Made by a program: the position numbers and the translations under genes. Below are positions 7,577 through 45,160 of a stretch of DNA of 54,948 bases, piece after piece. The notes beneath the pieces were generated by a model. It saw only the letters and a list, made by a program, of their open reading frames with translations, had not been told where the DNA came from and made no database searches. Position 1 is the stretch's first letter. Every line of letters begins with the position of its first letter. The stretch is from Candidatus Actinomarina sp. (lineage in GTDB: Bacteria; Actinomycetota; Acidimicrobiia; Actinomarinales; Actinomarinaceae), in NCBI GenBank assembly GCA_041234785.1, contig JBEROH010000002.1:1-54948 (forward strand). The letters run 5' to 3'.

Positions 7577-9380
7577 CTTCTACAACTGCACCTTCAACTA
7601 CGTCATCTCCTTCATCTGATGGTGTAGAAGGGTCGTTGTCTTTATTAGATTCAGCATAAATTTTTTCAACAAAAGATTGAGTTGATTTAGTTAAATCTTC
7701 AATTGCAGTTCTCAATTCAGCTATTGCTGCCTCATCTTCTGCTATTAATTTTTTAAGCTTTTCTTTAGCATCTGTAATATTTGTAACTTCTTCTTCAGTT
7801 GCCTTATCTTTATTTTCCTCAAGCATTTTTTCTGTAGAAGTAATCATTCCCTCTGCTAAGTTTCTAGTTTCAACCATCTCTTTTTTTTCAGCATCTTCAT
7901 TTGCGTGTTGTTCCGCATCTTTAATCATGCGATCTATTTCATCTTGTTCTAAAGCAGTACCACCAGTAATCGTTATTGCCTGTTGCTTACCCGTCCCAAG
8001 ATCTTTTGCGTTTACATTGACTATACCGTTAGCGTCTATATCAAAAGTAACCTCAATTTGAGGTGTGCCCTGTCTAGCAGGAGGAATGTCAGTAAGTGTA
8101 AACTTACCTAATGATTTATTACCAGAAGCCATTTCTCTTTCTCCTTGCAAAACATGAATTTCAACTTGCGTTTGGTTGTCTTCAGCAGTGGTAAATGTTT
8201 CTGATCTTTTAGTAGGAATTGTTGTGTTCCTTTCAATCATTTTTGTCATTATTCCACCCTTTGTCTCAACACCTAGAGTTAAAGGTGTTACATCTAGTAA
8301 CAGAACATCTTTTACCTCACCTTTCAAAACTCCTGCTTGAATTGCAGCTCCAGCAGCAACCACTTCATCCGGATTAACACCCTTGTGAGGATCTTTTCCA
8401 GTGAGTGTTTTTACTAAGTTTTGTACGGATGGCATCCTTGTTGATCCACCAACCAAAATTATATGATTTAAATCAGAAAATTTTAATCCTGCATCGGCCA
8501 AAGCCTTTTGCACAGGTTCTTTTGTTCTGTTTACAAGATCAGCTGTTATTTTTTCAAACTCAGCCCTACTTAATTTTTCTAATAAGTGTTGTGGCCCGGA
8601 ATCATTTGCTGTAATAAATGGCAGATTTATTTCGGTTTCACTTGTTGAAGAGAGTTCAATTTTAGCTTTTTCAGCACTTTCTTTAATTCTTTGTATTGCC
8701 ATTTTATCCTTGGCTAAATCGATACCAGTAGATGACTTGAATCTTTCAATAATCCAATCCATAACTCTTTGGTCCCAATCGTCACCACCTAATTTTGAGT
8801 CACCCGAGGTTGACTTTACTTCAAATACACCTTCAGAGATTTCTAATATAGAAACATCAAATGTACCTCCACCTAAATCAAATACAAGTATTTTTTGATC
8901 TTCGTCATTTTCCAGCCCGTAAGCCAAAGAAGCAGCTGTTGGTTCATTTATAATTCTTAATACATTTAACCCAGCAATTTTACCCGCTTCTTTTGTTGCT
9001 TGTCTTTCAGCATCATTGAAGTATGCAGGAACAGTAATAACTGCATCTGTAACTTCAGTTCCCAAGTAAGACTCAGCATCCCTTTTTAATTTTTGTAAAA
9101 TTCTTGCAGAGATTTCTTGAGGAGTGTAGTCCTTACCATCAAAATTTTCTTTCCAATTTGTTCCAATATGTCTTTTAATAGACCTAACAGTGTTATCAGG
9201 ATTTGTAATAGCCTGTCTTTTTGCAAGTTCTCCGACTAAAACTTCACCAGACTTGAAAGCAACAATTGAAGGTGTTGTTCTGTTGCCTTCAGCATTCGCT
9301 ATAACGGAAGGTTCTCCACCTTCTAATACAGCAACAACGCTATTTGTTGTTCCTAAATCAATTCCAACTGCTTTTCCCAT
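7569..9380 (-). CDS. dnaK: molecular chaperone DnaK (Hsp70)
   Basis: Hsp70 signatures [17 protein letters not shown] and VGGSTRMP. Length is 603 aa, with an AAGGA Shine-Dalgarno upstream. Confidence 0.98.
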
Positions 9381-9772: not shown

Positions 9773-10564
9773 ATGAAAAATATAGACATCCATATAGTTG
9801 GGCTGGGAAATTTAGGTACGGCTTTTCTAGATGCTTTAATAAGCCAATCTTTTAAACTCTATCTTTATGAACAAGATTTAAATTTAAAAGATAAAATTTA
9901 TAAAAAATATAAATTACCCGTAAATGAAAATTTAAATCATATTGAATCTGGAGTGTTGATTTTGTGTATTAAGCCACAAAATGTAATCTCATTTCTAAAA
10001 AATACTAAAGATTTTATTTCTGAGGAAGTTCTTATTTGTTCACCGGTAGCAGGTTTACAGATTTCTACACTTAATGAACATTTAAAAAATAAAGTGATAC
10101 GTATAATGCCAAATCTATTAATCAGGAATAAAAATGGATTCATACCTTACTGTAAAAATTATTCAGACGATTATCTTGGTTTTGAAAATTCCTTATTGTC
10201 GACCTTGGGAAAAATAAAGGAATACGAAGAAAATCATTTCCCGCTTATAACAGCTCTATCTGGTAGTGGACCTGCATGGTTTTATGAATTAGCAAATCAG
10301 TTGGTTGTAGCAGGAGCTAAACATGGCTTAGATCCTGTAGATGCAGAATTCATTGTTAAAGAGTTGGTTAAATCTCTCCCTAACTTAGTTAGTAAAGACG
10401 AATCTTTTCATGATTTAGTAACGAAAGTTAAATCTCCAAATGGTACGACTGAAGCCGGATTAAATTCGCTAAAACAAGCTTCGTTTGATACAATAATTCA
10501 CAATGCTATTGAAAAAGCAAGTCAAAGATCTGTAGAGATATCAAAAGATTTAGAGAATGAATAA
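9773..10564 (+). CDS. proC: pyrroline-5-carboxylate reductase
   Basis: N-terminal Rossmann motif (IVGLGNLG), SGSGPAW, and the C-terminal SPNGTTEAGL motif typical of ProC. Confidence 0.85.
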   Translation: MKNIDIHIVGLGNLGTAFLDALISQSFKLYLYEQDLNLKDKIYKKYKLPVNENLNHIESGVLILCIKPQNVISFLKNTKDFISEEVLICSPVAGLQISTLNEHLKNKVIRIMPNLLIRNKNGFIPYCKNYSDDYLGFENSLLSTLGKIKEYEENHFPLITALSGSGPAWFYELANQLVVAGAKHGLDPVDAEFIVKELVKSLPNLVSKDESFHDLVTKVKSPNGTTEAGLNSLKQASFDTIIHNAIEKASQRSVEISKDLENE

Positions 10565-12716
10565 ATTTATTAAAAAGTATAAAGCAAATGATTACGTTTT
10601 ATTGTTTTCTGCCGGCGCAGCATTAGGTACATTATTTTTGTGGGGTGCTAGCTATATTTATCCTGAAGGTGAAATAATAAACGGAAGAAGGGTTTTTGAA
10701 AACATTCCAAAATCAATCCAGTATGTTTTCTATGTTCTAAGTTCAGCCTTTATTTATATTTCTGGGTATTTATTTTCATTAAGGGTTAAAAACTGGACAC
10801 GAGGTAAAGCTGAAAAGCGTAATACTAAAACTTCTGAAAAAATTAAAAACTTGTTTGATGGATTGACTATGAAAACTGTTCTGAGGTTTAAAAGTGCAGG
10901 ACTAATGCACTCTCTTATTTATATTGGATTTTTGGGACTGTTTGCAGGTACAGTCACTCTTGAAATCCACCATCTTCTTCCTCCTTCATTAAAGTTCCTC
11001 CAAGGCACAACTTATATTGTGTATTCATTTTTGTTGGAATTAGCCACTATTTCTTTTTTAGTAGGTTTGTTTTGGGCTCTGATTAGACGTATTACTGGTT
11101 CAGAGTACAGAATTAAAACAAAAACTTCCCTAGACGATTACTTAACACTTTCATTGTTAATCTTTTTAGGAATCTCTGGTATTACGACAGAAGCTGGGAG
11201 GATAGCTTTAGAAAATTTTCCAGATTATGAAAAATGGTCATTTATTGGATATCGAGTTGCAGAAATGCTTTCATTAAATAATCCAGAAACTTTTCATAGG
11301 ATATCTTGGATTCTTCATGTAGTTAGTTTCTTTATATTTTTAGTCTCTCTTCCGTTAACAAAATTAAGACATATTTTTACTTCCCCTATAAATATGTTTT
11401 TTTCTCCAAAAGACAGACCCAAAGGGGCAATGAGTTTTATCGGCAATTTATTAGAAGCTGAAGATATAGATAATGTGGGATCTGAGATTATCGATCATTT
11501 TACGTGGAAGCAGTTAATGGATCTAGATGCTTGTACTGTTTGTGGCAGATGTACCTCAGTTTGTCCTGCTAATCAAACGGGGAAATCTTTAGACCCAAGA
11601 GAAATAATATTAAAGATAGGGCAAGTTATGTCTGAATCTGGTGAGCCACCAGTTTCAGCAACAATTACAACACCGGGCCCATTAAGAGTCAACTCATCAA
11701 ACGTTTTTGAACGTATAACATCAGAAGAAGTTTGGGCATGTACTTCATGTAAAGCATGTGATGAAATTTGCCCGGTGAACATTGAAATTCTTGACAAAAT
11801 ATTAGACATGAGAAGACATCTAGCGCTCATGGAGTCTGATTTTCCTTCTGAGCTTGGAAAAGCATATGTAGCAATGGAGAATTCTTCCAATCCATGGGGT
11901 GCTTCACAAAATGACCGACTAAAGTGGGCTAGCGATCTTGACTTTGATATACCGATAATAGATGATTCTAATTTTGAACAGTATGACTATCTTTACTGGG
12001 TTGGTTGTGCCGGTGCCTTTGACGACAGAAATGTTCCCGTAACCAAAGCAGTTGCAACTTTATTAAAAAGAGCAGGTGTTTCATTTGCTGTTCTTGGTCC
12101 AAAAGAAGTCTGTACTGGAGATTCAGCAAGGAGAACAGGAAATGAATTTATATTTCAACAATTAGCAATTCAAAATATTGAAAATATGAACAATTTAAAA
12201 GTTGAGAAAATTATTACACAATGTCCTCACTGTTTTAACACAATTGCAAATGAATACCCACAATTTGGTGGTAACTATGAAGTAATTCATCATAGTCAAC
12301 TCTTAACAGAACTTGTACAATCAGGACGAATTGAAGTAGGCAATAGTGATAAGCCTCATAAAATTACTTATCATGATTCATGTTATTTGGGTAGACATAA
12401 TGATATTTATACAGCACCTAGAGAAATTGTTGGCTCTATTGGTGGTATTGAAATTAGAGAAATGAAAAGACAGGGAACTGAGAGTTTTTGCTGTGGTGCT
12501 GGTGGTGGACGCATGTGGATGGAAGAATCAACCGGAAAAAAAATTAATATAGAGCGTTCTCAAGAAGCGATTGATACAGGTGCTGATGAGGTTGCTGTTG
12601 CTTGTCCTTTTTGTTATATCATGATGGATGATGGAGTAAAAGAATTAGGCTATGGTGATAAAGTTAAAGTTAGAGATGTTTCATTAATTCTGTTAGATAA
12701 TTTAAAAAAAGATTAG
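10557..12716 (+). CDS. membrane-anchored Fe-S reductase (NarI/HdrE-like b-cytochrome domain fused to an HdrD/GlpC-like domain)
   Basis: N-terminal 5-6 TM region with conserved His residues. Two 4Fe-4S ferredoxin motifs (CTVCGRCTSVCP, CTSCKACDEICP). Two C-terminal cysteine-rich CCG-type repeats (GCAG...C, CCGAGGG). Confidence 0.75.
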   Translation: MNKFIKKYKANDYVLLFSAGAALGTLFLWGASYIYPEGEIINGRRVFENIPKSIQYVFYVLSSAFIYISGYLFSLRVKNWTRGKAEKRNTKTSEKIKNLFDGLTMKTVLRFKSAGLMHSLIYIGFLGLFAGTVTLEIHHLLPPSLKFLQGTTYIVYSFLLELATISFLVGLFWALIRRITGSEYRIKTKTSLDDYLTLSLLIFLGISGITTEAGRIALENFPDYEKWSFIGYRVAEMLSLNNPETFHRISWILHVVSFFIFLVSLPLTKLRHIFTSPINMFFSPKDRPKGAMSFIGNLLEAEDIDNVGSEIIDHFTWKQLMDLDACTVCGRCTSVCPANQTGKSLDPREIILKIGQVMSESGEPPVSATITTPGPLRVNSSNVFERITSEEVWACTSCKACDEICPVNIEILDKILDMRRHLALMESDFPSELGKAYVAMENSSNPWGASQNDRLKWASDLDFDIPIIDDSNFEQYDYLYWVGCAGAFDDRNVPVTKAVATLLKRAGVSFAVLGPKEVCTGDSARRTGNEFIFQQLAIQNIENMNNLKVEKIITQCPHCFNTIANEYPQFGGNYEVIHHSQLLTELVQSGRIEVGNSDKPHKITYHDSCYLGRHNDIYTAPREIVGSIGGIEIREMKRQGTESFCCGAGGGRMWMEESTGKKINIERSQEAIDTGADEVAVACPFCYIMMDDGVKELGYGDKVKVRDVSLILLDNLKKD

Positions 12717-16477: not shown

Positions 16478-17326
16478 TTGTATTTAGTAAACGGCACTGA
16501 AGTAGAAAAAGTTAATTTTAATCTTCCTATAGAAAACTTAGCTGTATGGAGAGGAGATGGTGTATTCGAGGCTATTAAGCTTCACGATGGTTTCCCTTTT
16601 GGTTTAAACAGACACATTGAGAGATTAAAGGATTCTTGTAAAAAACAATACTTTAATGGTGTAAATTTTGAATTAGTAAAAAATTCTATTATTGAAATTT
16701 CATCAAAATATAAATCCGGATATGTAAGAGTATTAATTTTGAGAAACGACTCGGATGAAGGATTTGATATATTTTCTTTTTACCAAAACCCACAAGCTAT
16801 TCCTCCAGTTATTACCTTAGAATCTCAATTCGCCCCGTGGCATCCTGGTGGAGATTATGAAGTTTATCCTGACAGCCTAATTGGATCTAAATCAACTTCG
16901 TATGCATATAATGTAAGACAAACAAGAGAGGCTAATCAAAAAGGATATACTGACGCATTGCTGGTAAACAGTAAGCAAGTAATTTTAGAAGGCCCAACTT
17001 TTTCAATTGGTTGGATTGATGGGAATGAAGTTTTTGTTCCAGATTTAGGTTTAGGAATACTCAACTCAATTACTAGACAATATTTATTAAAGTTTGGAGA
17101 TGAAAAAAAACTGAAAGTTAATTGTGCAAGAATTACTCTTCAAGAAATATATAAAGTTGACTCTGTATTTATACTATCTACTGCAAAGCATGCAGTATTT
17201 GTGTCAAAAATAGATGACAATTTATATTCAGAATCTCCTGTTATTAAAGATATTCAAGAGTTATACAAACAAGAAGTATTATTAGAAAAAGCTAGATTCC
17301 AGGAGGTGATTAATGAGACTCACTGA
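16478..17326 (+). CDS. fold-type IV PLP-dependent enzyme (branched-chain/D-amino-acid aminotransferase or ADC-lyase family)
   Basis: 282 aa with family-typical blocks (WRGDGVFEAI, GLNRHIERL, ILEGPTFSIGWI). TTG start. Its 3' end overlaps the selD start. Confidence 0.7.
   Translation: MYLVNGTEVEKVNFNLPIENLAVWRGDGVFEAIKLHDGFPFGLNRHIERLKDSCKKQYFNGVNFELVKNSIIEISSKYKSGYVRVLILRNDSDEGFDIFSFYQNPQAIPPVITLESQFAPWHPGGDYEVYPDSLIGSKSTSYAYNVRQTREANQKGYTDALLVNSKQVILEGPTFSIGWIDGNEVFVPDLGLGILNSITRQYLLKFGDEKKLKVNCARITLQEIYKVDSVFILSTAKHAVFVSKIDDNLYSESPVIKDIQELYKQEVLLEKARFQEVINETH
17301..17306 (+). promoter_or_regulatory. Shine-Dalgarno (AGGAGG) for selD
   Basis: Perfect AGGAGG 6 nt upstream of the ATG at 17313. 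Confidence 0.6.
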
Positions 17327-18347
17327 GTATTCTCATGGTTCTGGTTGAGCTTGTAAACTCTCACAAGGAGAACTTGCTCAGGTACTGAAGCAATTAAAAC
17401 AACAAAAAATCGATAATCCAAACGTAATTGTTGGGTTAGATTCGCCAGACGACGGTGGTGTTATAAAAATTGGAGAAAATATTCAATTAATTCAAACAGT
17501 TGATTTTTTTAATCCAATATTAGACGATCCATATGATTGGGGTAGAGTTGCGGCTGCTAATGCATTATCTGATGTGTACGCAATGGGTGGATATCCTATA
17601 TCTGCTCTTCAATTGATAAGCTGGCCACGTTCAGATATTGGTTTTGATATATTATCAAAAGTGATTGAAGGTGGAGCCAAAGTAATGAAAGATGCAGGAT
17701 GCAACATTATTGGTGGTCATAGCATTGATGATAAAGAACCAAAGTATGGATTTGCAGTAACTGGAATTATAGAAGGAAAAATTTATACAAAAACTAATCT
17801 ACAAAAAGGCCAAAGGTTAATTTTAACTAAACCTCTAGGATCAGGAATTATTGCAACTGCAATAAAAAAAGGAATTGCTGATAGTGCCTCAATCAAAGAG
17901 ATAACAGAAGTTATGACTACATTAAACCACAATGCATTATCTATTGCTAAAGAATTACAAGCAGAGGCTATCACAGATATAACGGGTTTTGGTTTGTTGG
18001 GTCATTTAAGTGAAATGTTGATTGATGAAGAACTTTCAGCAACAATTTTATTGAATAGAGTTCCGATTTTAAGTTCTGCAAAAAAATATTTTAACAAAGG
18101 TATTTATCCATCTGGTAGTCAAAGAAATTTAGACTCAATTTTAAATCAAATTTCATTTGATAATTTGTCTTTAGATGAGATTAAGTACTTAGCAGATGCA
18201 CAAACAAGTGGAGGTCTTCTTTTCTCTATTGCGAGTGATTCGATGTTTAATGTCGAAGATATTAAAAAAAATTACAATGTTGATCTTTGGGAAATAGGTG
18301 AAATTACCTCAAGATATAACAAAAAAATAAATATCATTAATAATTAA
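17313..18347 (+). CDS. selD: selenide, water dikinase (selenophosphate synthetase), Sec-containing form; TGA at 17346-17348 read as selenocysteine
   Basis: The track ORF (17574-18347) is only the C-terminal part. The same frame from ATG 17313 reads MRLTEYSHGSG-TGA-ACKLSQGELAQVL...VGLDSPDDGGVIKIG...VDFFNPILDDPYDWGRVAAANALSDVYAMGG. This is the SelD N-terminal loop, with TGA at the catalytic Cys/Sec position. Confidence 0.9.
17346..17348 (+). other. UGA selenocysteine recoding site within selD
   Basis: In-frame TGA flanked by GSG and ACK, matching the G-x-G-(C/U)-x-x-K SelD motif. A tRNA-Sec gene is present in the same window. Confidence 0.85.
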
Positions 18348-19267
18348 TGATTAAAACTTTAGCTAAATTCGTAACAGTTGTAACAATTTTTAAAAATTTA
18401 ATAGAAACCAAAAAAAGCAAGTCTAATGGTGTTACCCAAATTCATCCAAGCAAAATTCCAGGTAGAACAGTTTTTGTAAGAGAAAAAGAATACTTTATAA
18501 GAGAAAATTATGTTGAAAATACAGTCCCTATTGTTTTTTTGCATAGTTGGGGATCAGATTCATTAGGAAGTTGGTTTAAGATTCTACCAAAGCTAAAAAA
18601 CACAACTTCCTATATTGCAATAGACCTAAAAAACCATGGAAAATCTGACTCTAGTTGGAAAAGGTGGGATGTAGATGAAAATGCAGATATTGTAATTAGC
18701 ATTTTAAAAATGCTAAATATTCAGCAATGTTATTTAGTAGGCTGGTCAATGGGCAGTGCAGTTGGGTTATCAATTGCAAAAAAGGAAGAATCTCTAATAA
18801 AAAAATTAATTTTAGTTACTCCATTTAGTTGGTTAGGTGGCGCTGTTTATCATGATAAAACATTTTTCAAAATCTTTGTGGGGTTTGTAAGAATTAGAGA
18901 AAGATTATTTCCAAATATGAATCCTAAAAATAAATATTCTTTTTTACGCAAAACAAATTCGATTAAAGACGAACATTCTGACTGGGCTTGGAACAATTTA
19001 CATAAATCAAAAGATGATTTTATTTATGCAGATGGAGGCAGATTTGTTGTTCCTTACGATGCAAGACCTTGGATTAACGAAATAGCCATTGAGACTTTAG
19101 TTATAATCGGGGCAAAAGATAAATTAGTACCCGAAGAGACTTCTAAAGAAGTTATAGATCGTTTAATAAATGTTAATGTGAAAACATTCATTGATGCTGG
19201 TCACTCAATACCCTGGACGCATGATGAGGAGCTATTAAAAGAATTGAAAGATTATTTAAACTTATGA
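18347..19267 (+). CDS. alpha/beta-fold hydrolase
   Basis: HSWGS oxyanion region, GWSMGS nucleophile elbow, and C-terminal DAGHSIPW catalytic His. The start shares one nucleotide with the selD stop. Confidence 0.7.
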   Translation: MIKTLAKFVTVVTIFKNLIETKKSKSNGVTQIHPSKIPGRTVFVREKEYFIRENYVENTVPIVFLHSWGSDSLGSWFKILPKLKNTTSYIAIDLKNHGKSDSSWKRWDVDENADIVISILKMLNIQQCYLVGWSMGSAVGLSIAKKEESLIKKLILVTPFSWLGGAVYHDKTFFKIFVGFVRIRERLFPNMNPKNKYSFLRKTNSIKDEHSDWAWNNLHKSKDDFIYADGGRFVVPYDARPWINEIAIETLVIIGAKDKLVPEETSKEVIDRLINVNVKTFIDAGHSIPWTHDEELLKELKDYLNL

Positions 19268-20394
19268 AAAATGTATTGTTTTTCTCACCAACATATTACG
19301 AGCTTCCTCTGAATAAAAATCTTAAAAAAAAATTTGAGTATTTAAGTGAAGTCGGAAATATATTTGTTTTTGCTTTTGCAAGCAAAAAACTTCATTTTAC
19401 TGAATCCAACACAGAATTTTATTTATTTAAAAAAAATAGGGTAAGAGTTATTAATTATTTAAAAATTTTTTTTCATTCATATTTTGAATTATCAAAAATA
19501 GTAGCTTTAAAAGAAATTGAAATTGTTGTCTTTCAAGATCCTGTCACTAGTTTTATCGGAACTTATATGCTTAAAAAAAAGCACAGTAAAGTTGGAATAG
19601 TTGTCGAATCACATGGTGATTTTATTAATACTTTAGGCTTAGAAAAAAACTTACTGTTACCAAAACTTTATGAATATCTTTTTAAAAAAATAGCTTATTT
19701 TACGATAAAAAATGCTGATATTATTAGGGCTGTTTCTTCGTCCACTGAAAAACAATCACTTCTTTTTGATCCAACCAAAAAAGTTGTAAGGTTTCCAGCA
19801 TGGGTTGACTTTGAAAGTTTTAGTCAAGTTGAGCCAAAAAGAGATGCTAATGGAAAATTCAAAATATTATTTATAGGAAGTGTCACAGATCGAAAAAAAC
19901 CTCACATGATAGTAAAATCATTAGCTCTAATAGATGATCCAAATATCGAATTAAATATTGTAGGCCCTACTCCAAATGATAAATATCTGGGAGAGCTTAA
20001 CAGCTTGATTCAAATTAATAATTTAGTTGATAGAGTATTTCTACATGGTATAAAAAATCAAGAAGAAGTAATGGATTATTATGCTACTAGCAATCTTATG
20101 ATCTTACCATCTGTTTCAGAGGGACTTGCAAGGGTAATTTTTGAATCTCAGGCGACAGCGTGTCCCGTTCTTGTAACTGATGCACCAGGTATGCAAGATA
20201 TTGTCCTTGATGGACAGACAGGGTATGTCTTTTTAAGTAATAATCTTGATTCTTTAGTTGAAAAAATCAAATATATTCAAGCAAATTATGATGAATCAAC
20301 ACAAGTAGGAATCAATGCAAAAGAGTTTATTATTAGTAATTTTTCAGCTGAAAAATTTAAATTTAGTTTTAAGAAAATATTTGATTTAGTTTAA
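19264..20394 (+). CDS. GT4-family (GT-B fold) glycosyltransferase
   Basis: C-terminal EX7E motif (EGLARVIFE) followed by PVLVTDAPGMQDIV...GQTGYVF, typical of group-1/GT4 glycosyltransferases. ATGA overlap with the upstream hydrolase. Confidence 0.8.
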   Translation: MKNVLFFSPTYYELPLNKNLKKKFEYLSEVGNIFVFAFASKKLHFTESNTEFYLFKKNRVRVINYLKIFFHSYFELSKIVALKEIEIVVFQDPVTSFIGTYMLKKKHSKVGIVVESHGDFINTLGLEKNLLLPKLYEYLFKKIAYFTIKNADIIRAVSSSTEKQSLLFDPTKKVVRFPAWVDFESFSQVEPKRDANGKFKILFIGSVTDRKKPHMIVKSLALIDDPNIELNIVGPTPNDKYLGELNSLIQINNLVDRVFLHGIKNQEEVMDYYATSNLMILPSVSEGLARVIFESQATACPVLVTDAPGMQDIVLDGQTGYVFLSNNLDSLVEKIKYIQANYDESTQVGINAKEFIISNFSAEKFKFSFKKIFDLV

Positions 20395-41378: not shown

Positions 41379-42731
41379 TCAATCCCAGTCTAAGTGTAAA
41401 AAATCATCAGAATTATTTAATTGTACTTTGTGTCCTCCAAAGTAGTCTCTTTGAGCTTGTATTAACGCAGAGGGATTGAATTCATTTGAACTATTTATAT
41501 ACCAATTGTATGTAGAAATTATTACTGGAATGGCAATATTTGATTCAACAGAGTTTGTTATCTGTTTTTTTACCATAGGTAAATTTAAGTTAAGAATTTT
41601 TTGAATTTGTTTTGATTTAGCTAATGATTCTTTATTTAAAACTTTTTTTAAATCATGAAGCAAGTCAGATCTAATTATGCAACCAGCCGACCAATTGTCT
41701 AGTACATTTTTAATTTCAATATTAAGATTTTCAGATTGACTATAGTTTTCTATAAAAAGTAAACCTTGAAGCATTGAGCACATTCTTGAAAAATACATAG
41801 CACTGCTGACTTGGGCTATATCTATTGTGCAATTATTTGACGCAATTAATTCTGGCCATATATTTTGAAAATGACTTTCCACCCGTGAGTTGAAAGCCTC
41901 ATAGATACTGGGTAGTGGAAATCCATTTTCCATTGAGGTAAAAACCGATAATTTTCCGGTTCCTTTGTGATTAGCTTTTGATTGTATCTGGTCAATTAAG
42001 AATCCTTTTTCATTTTTACTTAATAAAATTTTTGCAGTTATCTCAATTAAATACGATGATTTATTCTCTTTTTTTAAATTGTCAAAAAAATTACTAATTT
42101 GAATATTATCTAATTTTCCATTTTTAAGAATTCTGTAAATCTCAGCAATTATTTGCATTTCTGCATATTCTATTCCATTATGCAGCATCTTTATAAAGTG
42201 TCCTGTCCCATAACCTTTATAAAGGCCTATACATGGCTTTTCCTGATATTTTGCAGATATGTCAACAAGCATATCTAACAGTTGTTTGTCAATATCAGTT
42301 CTTGCACCAATCATTAATGACGGCCCATGTCTAGCACCAGATTCACCACCTGATACACCCATTCCAATAAAATTAATATTTTTTTCTTTACATAAATTAC
42401 CTAATTTTTCACTATCTAAGAAATAAGCATTTCCACCATCAATTAAAGTATCCCCAGGTGAAAGATAAGAAATTAATTCTATTGCAAGATTAAATGTAGG
42501 ATCTCCAGAGGGAATCAACATTAAGACTTTTTTTGGAGGTTCTAAACTGTCAATAAATTCTTGAATCGATTCATGTCCAGAAATATTATTGTTGAGATCA
42601 GAATTTATTAAAGTATTTAATTTTTCACGAGATTTATTTAATATGCTGATTTTGTATTGATTGTCTGAGAGATTGAGAGCAATATTAGAACCCATTACCC
42701 CTATACCTATTAAACCAATATTACTTTTCAT
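41379..42731 (-). CDS. gnd: 6-phosphogluconate dehydrogenase (decarboxylating)
   Basis: N-terminal IGLIGIGVMGSNIALNL and the signature HFIKMLHNGIEYAEMQ. Confidence 0.9.
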   Translation of the reverse strand: MKSNIGLIGIGVMGSNIALNLSDNQYKISILNKSREKLNTLINSDLNNNISGHESIQEFIDSLEPPKKVLMLIPSGDPTFNLAIELISYLSPGDTLIDGGNAYFLDSEKLGNLCKEKNINFIGMGVSGGESGARHGPSLMIGARTDIDKQLLDMLVDISAKYQEKPCIGLYKGYGTGHFIKMLHNGIEYAEMQIIAEIYRILKNGKLDNIQISNFFDNLKKENKSSYLIEITAKILLSKNEKGFLIDQIQSKANHKGTGKLSVFTSMENGFPLPSIYEAFNSRVESHFQNIWPELIASNNCTIDIAQVSSAMYFSRMCSMLQGLLFIENYSQSENLNIEIKNVLDNWSAGCIIRSDLLHDLKKVLNKESLAKSKQIQKILNLNLPMVKKQITNSVESNIAIPVIISTYNWYINSSNEFNPSALIQAQRDYFGGHKVQLNNSDDFLHLDWD

Positions 42732-44047
42732 GATAGAAGTTTAACAACACCTTGAAAGGTCAAATTCTCTAAATACAATTTCCTAATTTTAATCTCTACC
42801 TCAAGATCTTCGCTATTGTTAGCAACACTTATTATGGTTGAAAATTTTTGTAATTCATGTAATTTACTTGGATTTATTAAAACTTTAGTTTCAATTATTT
42901 CACCAAAAATTCTTCTAGTTAACTCAGAAATTAATTGTTCAATATTTGTGTTTTTTGTAGATGAGATGAAAATTGCATTATCATATTTTTCCATTAAAAA
43001 ATTGAGTGATGCTTTATCAATTTTATCAATTTTGTTAAAAACGAGTAATTCTTCAACCTTTGAATCTATCTGGTTTAAAATTTTACGAACAGTATTTATA
43101 TGCATCTCGGGTAAAGCTGCAGCGGCGTCAACAACATGAACTAATAAATTTGCTTCCTTAACAACAGTTAAAGTTGACTTAAAAGACTCTATTAATGTAG
43201 TTGGCAGATTTTGTATAAAGCCTACGGTATCAGAAATAATAATTTGCTCATTTATATCATCAATTTTTAACTCTCTTTGAAGGGAGTCAACTGTTGCAAA
43301 TAATTCATTTGCTACGTATGTTTTTGCAGACGTAATTTTCTCTAATAGTGTAGATTTTCCCGCATTTGTATAACCTACAATTGAAACCAACGGTGTATTA
43401 TGTTTTTTTCTAAAACTAGCCTGCACTTGTCTTTGTTTGTCTACTTTTTTAATTTCTCTTTTTAATTTATTAATTCTATTGTCAATCAACCTACTATCAG
43501 TTTCAAGTTTTGTTTCACCCGGACCTCTTGTACCAATACCACCCCCTTGTTGATTAAGTGTTTTACCTAATCCGGCAAGACGGGGTTTTAGGTAAATTGA
43601 AAGCGCTAGTTCAACTTGTAAACTAGCTTCTTTAGATTGGGCATGTAAAGCAAATATATCTAAAATTAATCCCGTTCGGTCAACTACATCACACATAAAC
43701 ATTGCTCGAAGCTCTTTTTGTTGATTAGGAGTAAGTTCACAGTCAAAAATCACAACGTCTATATCATTTGCATTAGAAATATCAACTAGTTCGCTTATTG
43801 AACCTTTTCCTATAAAAGTTTTTGGATCAATTTTTTCTACTCTTTTAGTTTGTATAATTTTTGGACTTGATCCAGCAGTTTTTACAAGATTTTCTAACTC
43901 TTTTAAAGATTCTTCCTTATCTGCTCTAACTTCATTTTTTAGAACGATACCTATTAAAAGTGCATTTTGAGTCGTAACGAAGATGTCTCTATCAGAAACT
44001 GTTAAGAGTCTTCGATCTGTTTGATTTGGGTTATTTCTTTGATTCAA
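42728..44047 (-). CDS. hflX: GTPase HflX
   Basis: HflX N-terminal domain followed by a G domain (VGYTNAGKSTLL, DTVGFIQNLPTTLIESFKSTL). Confidence 0.9.
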   Translation of the reverse strand: MNQRNNPNQTDRRLLTVSDRDIFVTTQNALLIGIVLKNEVRADKEESLKELENLVKTAGSSPKIIQTKRVEKIDPKTFIGKGSISELVDISNANDIDVVIFDCELTPNQQKELRAMFMCDVVDRTGLILDIFALHAQSKEASLQVELALSIYLKPRLAGLGKTLNQQGGGIGTRGPGETKLETDSRLIDNRINKLKREIKKVDKQRQVQASFRKKHNTPLVSIVGYTNAGKSTLLEKITSAKTYVANELFATVDSLQRELKIDDINEQIIISDTVGFIQNLPTTLIESFKSTLTVVKEANLLVHVVDAAAALPEMHINTVRKILNQIDSKVEELLVFNKIDKIDKASLNFLMEKYDNAIFISSTKNTNIEQLISELTRRIFGEIIETKVLINPSKLHELQKFSTIISVANNSEDLEVEIKIRKLYLENLTFQGVVKLLS

Positions 44048-44055
44048 TTACTTAA

Positions 44056-44376
44056 TTATAAGTACGTGCCATTATCTTGAGAAGATGAATTTTCTTCTTC
44101 TGCGATAATTTGTGATTCCCTCACCGCTAAAACTACTTTTCCAGTTGGTGGCCAAATAAATTTCCATGCACCACTGGCAACTGCCCAAAATTGTTTTCCA
44201 GTGTCAATATCAATTAGCGGCAATGCTTCAGAGGTTTTCTCACTTCCAGCAGGTACTAATAATCCAGATTTTGTATAGGTTTCTTCTCTTAGGTGTCCTA
44301 CCCTCCACCCTGGTGATACTTTAAACCCAGCAGGTGCAAATTGAATTTTCTTTAGTAACTCTTCGTCTTTTGCCAT
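44056..44376 (-). CDS. hypothetical protein with faint GroES/Cpn10-like resemblance
   Basis: 106 aa. The segment ETYTKSGLLVPAGSEKTSE loosely resembles the GroES mobile-loop region (T.SGL.IP...KEKP.E). It lies immediately downstream of tRNA-Sec on the same strand. Confidence 0.3.
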   Translation of the reverse strand: MAKDEELLKKIQFAPAGFKVSPGWRVGHLREETYTKSGLLVPAGSEKTSEALPLIDIDTGKQFWAVASGAWKFIWPPTGKVVLAVRESQIIAEEENSSSQDNGTYL

Positions 44377-44411
44377 TTTCTTATATTATACGCATTAAAT
44401 CTATAAGATAG

Positions 44412-44503
44412 CGGAGGTGGACAGGAATCGAACCTGCCAAAGATTTTTACACCTTTCATCAGTTTTGAAGACCGTGGAGCCCACCAGGCGCTCATTCACC
44501 TCC
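44412..44503 (-). tRNA. selC: tRNA-Sec (anticodon UCA)
   Basis: The reverse complement reads GGAGGTGA-AT-GAGCGC-CTGGT-GGGCTC-C-ACGGT-CTTCAAA-ACTGA-TG-AAAGGT-GTAAAA-ATCTTT-G-GCAGG-TTCGATT-CCTGT-CCACCTCC-G. The acceptor has 7 paired bases plus an A:C mismatch at position 8. The anticodon loop CUUCAAA (UCA) is identical to E. coli selC. There is a 6-bp long variable arm, a 5-bp T stem with a GGTTCGATTCC-type loop, and discriminator G. It is 92 nt without CCA. The anticodon stem is weak (4 bp including a G:U). Confidence 0.85.
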
Positions 44504-44554
44504 ATTTAGTAGAGTAGTTGTATAAAAAATTTTTAATTGAATAGAATTAGTCAT

Positions 44555-45160
44555 ATGGATAATTTTCAACACACATTAAATAAGCTTTTAACTGAAAGGG
44601 GATTAAGCAGTAAACAGCTCGCATCGTTTACAGGTGCTGAATTAAAAGAAGTTAAAAAGTGGCAATCCGGAACTAGTTTTCCAACAAACGAAAAAATTAT
44701 TAATGCCCTAGAAGGCTTATTAGGTACCGAGATCACAAAAACTCTCAAGGGGTATAGTTATTCAACAGTAAAAAACAACGACTCTGCAGAATTTGAAGAC
44801 AGTCTTTTCAATATCACTAAAGAAGAATTCGTAATTAAGAAAACAAAAGTTGATAAATTTCGAACTATTTTCCAAAAAACTAATCGTGAGCGTCTTACAA
44901 ACACTTCATACAAGGAATTGGAAAACAAAACAGAAGCTGAATCAAGTTTGACAGATGTTGATTTAAGAACAACAAATAGTGAAGACATATTCATAAGTGT
45001 CGAAGAGGAACCCTACATAAATGACGATAGCCAAATTATTTTTTATTTATTAAGAAATATAAAAACAGGAGCACTGCTTTTATTTTTGTTATCGATTGCA
45101 GCTACTACATTAGGATTATCTTGGAATTCTTTCTCAACTTTTATAAATAATCTTCTGTGA
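44555..45160 (+). CDS. membrane-anchored XRE-type helix-turn-helix protein
   Basis: N-terminal HTH (LLTERGLSSKQLASFTGAELKEVKKWQSGTSFP), a low-complexity linker and a single C-terminal TM helix. I prefer the ATG at 44555 over the TTG at 44537. GTGA overlap with ctaA. Confidence 0.5.
   Translation: MDNFQHTLNKLLTERGLSSKQLASFTGAELKEVKKWQSGTSFPTNEKIINALEGLLGTEITKTLKGYSYSTVKNNDSAEFEDSLFNITKEEFVIKKTKVDKFRTIFQKTNRERLTNTSYKELENKTEAESSLTDVDLRTTNSEDIFISVEEEPYINDDSQIIFYLLRNIKTGALLLFLLSIAATTLGLSWNSFSTFINNLL

Follow-up and report, generated by a model that had tools for sequence, protein, structure and literature searches.

The locus examined here raises the question of whether a single, somewhat irregular tRNA gene, carried by a 54,948-nucleotide (nt) stretch of Candidatus Actinomarina sp. 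DNA (contig JBEROH010000002.1 of assembly GCA_041234785.1; the whole stretch is called the window below), is a functional selC, the gene for the tRNA that delivers selenocysteine (Sec) to UGA codons. An initial annotation, made from the sequence alone, had proposed this and had pointed to two oddities in the stems. Our comparison with related loci from metagenomes, together with the analysis of selD in the same window, indicates that the locus is a functional selC with anticodon UCA, belonging to an actinobacterium of marine or brackish water, small and low in GC, which is most probably one of the Actinomarinales; we put the probability of this reading at about 0.93. Sec use in Actinomarina, with its selC and the Sec form of SelD, was already reported in April 2026 (bioRxiv 10.64898/2026.04.03.716425). 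What is added here is a structure backed by covariation, with an invariant A.C opposition and a species-specific A.A opposition, as well as the mixed state of the encoded CCA end among subclades, the constant adjacency of selC and hflX, and the mis-translation of SelD entries in databases.

The tRNA-Sec gene, its fold and its relatives

ARAGORN found a single tRNA in the 54,948 bases of the window, which it called tRNA-SeC (anticodon tca) and placed on the minus strand at 44411-44503. A cmscan of the entire window against all 4,227 Rfam families at their gathering thresholds gave RF01852 (tRNA-Sec) at 44413-44503 on the minus strand, with 70.8 bits against a gathering score of 47, an E value of 1.5e-12 and an alignment covering model positions 1-91 of 91. 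This was the sole Rfam family above its gathering score, and it survived clan competition with RF00005 (tRNA). With one tRNA from ARAGORN and one family from Rfam, the gene is indeed the only RNA gene detected in the window, as first claimed. Because the two independent detectors concur, it is assigned to tRNA-Sec and neither to tRNA-Ser nor to tRNA-Leu. The initial annotation had named a covariance-model assignment to one of these two, or a failure to fold as a tRNA, as the outcomes that would overturn it; RF01852 was the best family, ARAGORN called tRNA-SeC and the sequence folds into a cloverleaf. The two elements that define the gene are as follows:

44412..44503, minus strand: tRNA-Sec gene (selC), 92 nt, with G1 at 44503 and the discriminator base G73 at 44412 (ARAGORN, Rfam, RNAfold and covariation)
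44466..44468, minus strand: anticodon UCA, which reads UGA, in the 7-nt loop CUUCAAA (ARAGORN, with tca at position 36, and Rfam alignment)

The interval originally assigned to the gene thus runs exactly from G1 to the discriminator, in agreement with both programs. RNAfold produced the cloverleaf from the sequence alone at -35.2 kcal/mol, compared with a mean of -24.9 for shuffled sequences (z = -3.19; none of 200 as good). The D arm, GAGC(G)CC / GGGCUC, forms six pairs, bulges one G and closes with the 4-nt loop UGGU, and the variable arm is a 6-bp stem (AAAGGU/AUCUUU) closed by a 6-nt loop. The T arm reads GCAGG-UUCGAUU-CCUGU. The anticodon loop, variable stem, T arm and discriminator G described at the outset are therefore all present. 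There are eight residues on each acceptor strand, and the 13 positions of the acceptor/T branch comprise seven standard pairs, an A.C opposition and a 5-bp T stem that opens with G.U and C-G. Set against the bacterial 13-bp branch, this amounts to 12 standard pairs plus one A.C opposition, or to 13 pairs if the branch is folded 7/6 (see below). The CCA end is not encoded, and G73 is followed by the trailer CUA (CTA in the gene).

We then asked how the structure behaves among relatives. Metagenomes were scanned with the pattern TGGTGGG-N9-CTTCAAA-N6-GAAAGG, which fixes the D loop, the anticodon loop and the start of the variable arm and leaves the other stems free. The scan yielded 116 stretches, the loci being picked by tRNA sequence alone. 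Scan loci, earlier loci and the window together formed one family of 116 sequences with 19 distinct tRNA types; the scan also recovered higher-GC outgroup tRNA-Sec genes (L057, L089, L099, L103) and chance matches that are not tRNAs. The anticodon UCA was unchanged in all 116 family loci. Covariation was evaluated on 20 distinct sequences, of which 18 are family types and two are outgroups. Under a model with eight acceptor and five T-stem pairs (8/5), 92.9% of cells fell in standard pairs and nine pairs were altered on both sides. The covariation values of this model were matched in none of 500 shuffles, and sliding the 3' partners by one to three columns reduced pairing to 39-54%. The most variable pairs in this alignment were distributed as follows:

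Anticodon stem, pair 28:42: A-U in nine sequences, C-G in seven, G.U in one, U.G in one, unpaired in two
Anticodon stem, pair 30:40: A-U in 11 sequences, G-C in seven, G.U in two
T stem, third pair: G-C in 11 sequences, A-U in six, G.U in three
Variable stem, sixth pair: U-A in seven sequences, U.G in seven, C-G in six

The aligned sequences thus back the anticodon, variable and T stems by compensatory changes. Two-sided changes in the acceptor and D stems, two such pairs lying in the D stem, occurred only between the family and the outgroups. Over the 116 loci the acceptor and the D arm were identical, with protein identity of the flanking genes going down to 37-93%.

The tRNA type also follows the genomic background. 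Loci with an identical HflX, the ribosome-associated GTPase encoded downstream, carry an identical tRNA, and loci with an 85%-identical HflX carry a slightly different tRNA-Sec in the same place. The window's own type, with A.A at 28:42 and G.U at 30:40, was found only on six ENA/NCBI contigs that share its HflX; the samples include a "crustacean metagenome" and the metagenome-assembled genome (MAG) GCA_001510535.1. The exact type was absent among the 116 matching stretches of the JGI metagenome scan. The window's species is therefore much rarer in the JGI scan data than its 85%-identical marine relatives.

Within the family the 3' end was mixed. A G-CCA end is encoded in 23 loci (types CCCGGT/ACTGGT and some CCCGGT/ACCGGT), and the G-CTA trailer of the window is found in most of the others. 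One locus (L136, tRNA at about 8543-8638, plus orientation) showed a tandem partial duplication, in which a promoter block and the first 30 nt of the tRNA (GGAGGTGAATGAGCGCCTGGTGGGCTCCCC) are followed by CTTAATAAT and then by the full tRNA. It may have arisen in assembly, or it may be the scar of a recombination event at selC.

Non-standard pairs in the acceptor branch and the anticodon stem

The first oddity, an A:C mismatch at the eighth acceptor pair (7:66), proved to be real and to be no one-off, since it is invariant in the whole lineage. A8 lies opposite C in 116 of 116 family loci, and the pair is non-standard in all 20 aligned types (A.C in 18, G.G in the two outgroups). The same pair is C-G in the outgroup L057 and in Escherichia coli. 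The fold of this branch, which had been flagged for inspection as 8/5 versus 7/5, is more probably 8/5 with an A.C opposition, and the chief alternative is 7/6.

In the 7/6 fold, the same gene has seven acceptor pairs and a 6-bp T stem (GGCAGG/CCUGUC), so that the C is matched with the G before the T arm and A8 becomes part of the linker, giving 13 standard pairs and no mismatch. This is identical to the minimum-energy structure of RNAfold; all 18 family types have G-C at the pair in question (67:85), and overall pairing reaches 97.9% of cells. Since G, C and A8 are all fixed in the family, covariation is silent either way, and the outgroups L089 and L099 show G.G in those columns under both models. 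What speaks for 8/5 is homology, because the E. coli and L057 genes have C-G at the eighth pair. In addition, no 7/6 fold appears among the variants given in the accessible part of the Secmarker survey (PMC5330540). On these sequence comparisons we favour 8/5 with the A.C opposition by roughly three to one, and regard 7/6 as the less probable fold, though a serious contender.

The second oddity concerns the anticodon stem, for which only four clear pairs had been noted. This holds for the window, where the standard register gives four standard pairs (U-A, G-C, G.U, C-G) followed by A.A and C.U; it does not hold as a family trait, the four-pair state being derived in this species. A.A at 28:42 is unique to the window's type, whereas relatives mostly have A-U or C-G there and one type has A.C. 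At 27:43 every type is unpaired (C.U or C.A), so that the family stem has five pairs. C27 and the G that follows the stem are both invariant, and allowing a closing C-G pair across a one-base bulge lifts pairing to 96.1%. In the window's variant, a one-base slip of this bulge would, according to the fold model, restore six pairs. The register proposed by RNAfold, in which A28 pairs with the next U and an A is bulged, was considered as the family structure and rejected, as it is broken in 9 of the 20 types while 28:42 covaries. For the window's own variant the bulged register may hold, through a slip by one base.

Both structural quirks are of known kinds for bacterial tRNA-Sec, because an anticodon-stem bulge at 43a, a D-stem bulge at 13a and 12-bp branches have been described in other bacteria, including the actinobacterium Rubrobacter, in the Secmarker survey (Santesmasses et al. 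2017, PMC5330540).

The selD UGA codon and the case for Sec decoding

The window also carries a gene for selenophosphate synthetase, which ends 26.1 kb from the tRNA-Sec gene and in which the initial annotation had seen an in-frame UGA:

17313..18347, plus strand: selD (selenophosphate synthetase), Sec form, 344 amino acids (aa); TIGR00476 at 368.8 bits (with cysteine substituted), NF002098 at 345.6 bits, domains AIRS and AIRS_C
17346..17348, plus strand: in-frame TGA, Sec codon 12, in MRLTEYSHGSG-U-ACKLSQ (from the reading frame)
17346..17380, plus strand: candidate Sec insertion sequence (SECIS) hairpin starting at the UGA (UGAGC...GCUCA), which recurs in all relatives

The TGA at codon 12 is conserved in relatives of 62-99% identity. 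A homology search with SelD returned full-length relatives over this range, and every one inspected has W at residue 12; several of the database homologues (P0121-P0240) also have an extra W at their C-terminal ends. As judged from these sequences, W at residue 12 is the signature of gene calling with UGA as tryptophan on short contigs. The TGA was confirmed at codon 12 in the DNA of 10 relative loci (L139-L148), where translation with table 11 does not give the database protein. The 11 upstream codons encode a conserved MRLTEYSHG[S/A]G, although they differ at synonymous sites and even in the start codon, which is ATG or GTG. Because the upstream peptide is conserved while synonymous sites vary, the comparison provides strong evidence that translation reads through the selD UGA. 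In relatives the hairpin takes the form UGAGCA...CUCUCC-CAA-GGAGAG...UGCUCA. It is no more stable than shuffled sequence, and all its substitutions are also explicable by coding constraint, the region encoding the conserved active-site motif. Some 36 nt downstream there is another possible hairpin, whose loop has GU[A/U].

The neighbourhood of selD (window 16478-20394) is conserved in the same 10 loci and comprises NAD synthase, a class IV aminotransferase, selD, an alpha/beta hydrolase and a glycosyltransferase of family GT4; the selD start overlaps the end of the aminotransferase gene (17313 versus 17326). No other UGA-containing gene was found in the window, either as a genuine pair of open reading frames (ORFs) joined by a single TGA or as a small UGA ORF in the intergenic gaps. 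A 719-aa membrane Fe-S protein at 10557-12716 on the plus strand has a nitrate-reductase-gamma-like domain alongside a 4Fe-4S dicluster and two CCG (HdrD-like) domains. The suggestion to search for an Hdr-type selenoprotein found no support in this protein, which has no in-frame UGA.

Taken with the covariation-backed tRNA-Sec, the conserved selD UGA supports the earlier claim of an active Sec-decoding trait. By the established bacterial pathway, seryl-tRNA synthetase (SerRS) would charge the tRNA with serine by way of G73 and the long variable arm, which are SerRS identity elements (PMC9976931). SelA would then turn serine into Sec with selenophosphate from SelD, and SelB, rather than EF-Tu, would carry the Sec-tRNA to in-frame UGAs, including codon 12 of selD. 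The pairs C7-G66, G49.U65 and C50-G64 serve for SelB identity and EF-Tu rejection and were defined in E. coli alone (PMC9976931, citing Rudinger 1996). G49.U65 is retained in 20 of 20 types of our alignment and C50-G64 in 18 of 20.

Four observations weigh against a functional selC. Of the three pairs that confer SelB identity in E. coli, one is not kept here, 7:66 being A.C, and the anticodon stem of this species contains an A.A. No significant SECIS was detected downstream of the selD UGA, with z values of -0.25 to -1.63 against shuffles. Finally, no SelA or SelB domain (Pfam, NCBIfam) was found in the window ORFs of at least 80 aa, nor in the 7.7 kb beyond its right end, which on a public contig hold alaDH, the large and small subunits of an aconitase-family enzyme, a major facilitator superfamily transporter, a Na/H exchanger, an H+-PPase and a phosphatase. 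This absence bears out the initial statement that selC is unlinked to selA and selB. In all 84 complete Actinomarina genomes, selA is present at a fixed position away from selC, and selB is divergent (bioRxiv 10.64898/2026.04.03.716425). We infer that selA and selB lie elsewhere in the genome and that the pathway is complete in this organism.

The same observations could be read in two other ways. The tRNA might be a UGA decoder that resembles tRNA-Sec and inserts serine or cysteine in place of Sec, like allo-tRNAs or selC*-type tRNAs. Look-alikes of tRNA-Sec with anticodon UCA (allo-tRNAs) do exist in metagenomes (PMC6267555), selA and selB were not seen in the window, and the non-standard eighth pair could make the effective branch 12 bp long, as in allo-tRNAs. 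Against this, the eight residues that separate the T stem from G73 are the geometry of tRNA-Sec, the 6-bp D stem with its 4-nt loop is there, and G49.U65 and C50-G64 are retained. The tRNA is also the sole one of its kind in a window whose selD has UGA as its active-site codon. At the active-site position of SelD, Sec or cysteine alone is expected to work. Moreover, selA has been reported for all complete genomes of the genus (bioRxiv 10.64898/2026.04.03.716425), and natural tRNA-Sec genes with 12-bp branches are genuine Sec tRNAs (PMC5330540). We consider a decoder of this kind very improbable.

Alternatively, the gene could be a decaying, non-functional relic of a lost Sec trait, as its two non-standard pairs (A.C and A.A), its unencoded CCA and the lack of selA and selB in view might suggest. 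A relic would hardly keep an acceptor and D arm identical in 116 loci despite flanking-gene divergence to 37-93%, nor three stems maintained by compensatory changes, and conservation extends to the selD UGA and the coding sequence before it. Bacterial tRNA genes without an encoded CCA are common, and the CCA is likewise unencoded in most of this family. Decay is in our judgement the least probable explanation of all, and a functional tRNA-Sec is the reading retained below.

Genomic setting and comparison with known systems

The gene lies in a compact housekeeping region, with about 97% gene occupancy and a GC content of ~0.30-0.36 (about 32%). Pfam and NCBIfam searches of ORFs of at least 80 aa identified phosphotransferase system (PTS) components, dnaK-grpE-dnaJ, WhiB, NAD synthase, the cox operon, ctaA/ctaB, lgt, an F420-dependent LLM-type oxidoreductase, an M1 aminopeptidase, gnd, hflX, a sigma-70 factor and PmbA/TldD. 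Among these products, WhiB and the F420-dependent enzymes point to Actinomycetota. The GC and coding figures match those of Candidatus Actinomarinales genomes, which are described as 1.1 Mb in size, with 32.4-32.7% GC and 97% coding density (PMC7771536). Relatives of the window's HflX at 84-85% identity number in the thousands in marine metagenomes (Tara, JGI, ENA), and the identical locus occurs on public contigs, including those of the NCBI MAGs GCA_001510535.1, GCA_041252455.1 and GCA_041243165.1. The features next to the tRNA are the following:

41379-42731, minus strand: gnd, its start overlapped by hflX
42728..44047, minus strand: hflX, ribosome-associated GTPase; TIGR03156 at 401 bits, Pfam GTP-bdg_N, GTP-bdg_M and MMR_HSR1
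44056..44376, minus strand: ORF106, 106 aa, no assigned function; 35 nt downstream of the tRNA and co-oriented with it
44511..44516, minus strand: candidate -10 element TACTCT (TANNNT type) for selC, 7 nt upstream of +1; an assignment suggested by flank comparison
44537..45160, plus strand: helix-turn-helix (HTH) ORF with a C-terminal membrane segment, divergent from the tRNA; weak HTH_19 and HTH_26 matches, PHROG CII-like regulator at 7.7e-6, hydrophobic C-terminus

The initial annotation had correctly named hflX, gnd and the HTH-membrane ORF as neighbours and had missed the 106-aa ORF between the tRNA and hflX. Searches of Pfam (even at E = 10), NCBIfam and PHROGs returned nothing for ORF106, and a GroES-like pattern suspected by eye was discarded for want of confirmation. 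The ORF is found, at 106-109 aa, only in the window's subclade, where it is 82-88% identical in relatives whose HflX is 78-93% identical; in subclades that lack it, hflX starts 46-55 nt after the tRNA. TATAAT stands at 44385-44390, 8 nt before the ATG of ORF106, with TATAAT or TAATAT there among relatives. This spacing suggests, on sequence grounds, a leaderless or near-leaderless mRNA. With the start chosen by gene callers, ATG 44555, the HTH ORF has 201 aa and is separated from the tRNA by a 51-nt spacer; the position of this ORF is conserved, at 37-59% identity in relatives.

The arrangement was constant in all 115 related loci with enough flank; the scan loci among them, having been picked by tRNA sequence alone, offer a picture of the context that is free of selection bias. 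In each, sigA, ctaA and the HTH-membrane gene lie on one strand and the tRNA, hflX and gnd on the other, hflX being co-oriented with the tRNA and downstream of it. The 51-nt spacer (44504-44554) holds two blocks conserved across all subclades (also in L010-L138). The first, TTTTTATA[C/T]AA[C/T]TA[G/C]TCT, ends 7-8 nt before +1 of the tRNA and contains the candidate -10, which was not picked up by a strict sigma-70 consensus scan. With a TA[C/G]TCT so near to +1, RNase P would have hardly any 5' leader to remove. The second block, AATT[C/G]TATTC, gives on the complement TAGAAT 7 nt before the HTH ATG, so the mRNA of the HTH gene is probably leaderless. No terminator-like site was found between the tRNA and hflX, and the sequence is compatible with expression of selC and hflX from independent promoters, by read-through or by co-transcription. 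In the proposed arrangement, selC would be expressed with its own candidate -10 from a fixed housekeeping context, in which the co-oriented block ORF106-hflX-gnd begins 35 nt downstream of it. A more far-reaching proposal joins two ideas: that the A.C at 7:66 is no tolerated defect but a lineage-specific identity element co-evolved with the divergent SelB of the group, and that selC keeps its place before hflX because the two are co-transcribed, which would couple the supply of tRNA-Sec to a ribosome-rescue GTPase in a promoter-poor genome. We regard this combination as speculative and doubtful.

The initial annotation had also stated that no integrase or island flanks the gene, and this stands. 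There is no island at this tRNA, because no integrase, no phage-type neighbours and a single copy of its 3' end were found. In the window, no integrase and no phage structural match was detected, and the neighbours gave nothing beyond the weak regulator match in PHROGs. The genes near the tRNA are hflX, gnd, pepN, ctaA, sigA and the HTH gene. No att-type repeat was detected, the 3' 23 nt of the tRNA occurring once in the window, even with three mismatches allowed, and GC is flat at ~0.30-0.35 around the gene.

These results bear on annotation. The selD UGA should be annotated as Sec, and the organism decodes UGA in two ways, a point of practical weight in gene calling. In public databases this SelD is either truncated or given tryptophan at its active site; the pattern of tryptophan in place of Sec could serve to mine selenoproteins and could mislead annotation. 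The tRNA assignment itself is a sound annotation that opens no new question on Sec biology.

The best-known counterpart is selC of E. coli K-12 (b3658; NC_000913.3 3836222-3836316). Both genes have UCA in the loop CUUCAAA, G73, a branch of 8+5 positions, a D stem of 6 bp closed by a 4-nt loop, and a variable arm of the long type. The two share G49.U65 and C50-G64, and the near-identity of the T arms claimed at the outset is borne out, GCAGG-UUCGA(C/U)U-CCUGU being common to both with one loop base different. They differ at the eighth acceptor pair (C-G in E. coli, A.C in the window), in the extra D-stem nucleotide of the window tRNA, in the CCA end, which is encoded in E. coli and not in the window gene, and in the sequence and length of the variable arm. 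In addition, selC of E. coli is a classic integration site for islands, whereas that of the window sits in a fixed housekeeping context. Compared with the variants catalogued in the Secmarker survey, the window tRNA keeps eight residues with a fixed A.C at the junction; the same survey reports the D-stem bulge as specific to Clostridiales, and the window tRNA has one in its extra G (PMC5330540).

The closest comparison is with Actinomarina itself. The 2020 order-wide genome study leaves selenium unmentioned (PMC7771536). The 2026 preprint reports selC, selA, selD and a divergent selB in 84 of 84 complete genomes, with a Sec-form SelD described as "MRLT* prefix, 342-346 aa" (bioRxiv 10.64898/2026.04.03.716425). 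The SelD of the window, which begins with MRLTEYSHGSGU and has 344 aa, matches this description, and the low GC, the genome of ~1.1 Mb, selC (UCA) and the position of selA away from selC are shared. According to the preprint, the position of selC varies, lying inside a hypervariable region in 32 of 84 genomes, and there is no universal gene adjacency (bioRxiv 10.64898/2026.04.03.716425). Unlike this statement, the adjacency of the tRNA to hflX and to the divergent HTH gene was constant in our 115 loci. A moving selC and a constant adjacency can be reconciled only if whole blocks relocate. The well-preserved synteny of Actinomarinales described by Lopez-Perez et al. (PMC7771536) fits constant adjacency better. 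The preprint identified selC by its anticodon alone, with tRNAscan-SE and without a structure (bioRxiv 10.64898/2026.04.03.716425). The structure and the fixed selC-hflX address given here complement that anticodon-based identification for one of the most abundant streamlined lineages of marine actinobacteria.

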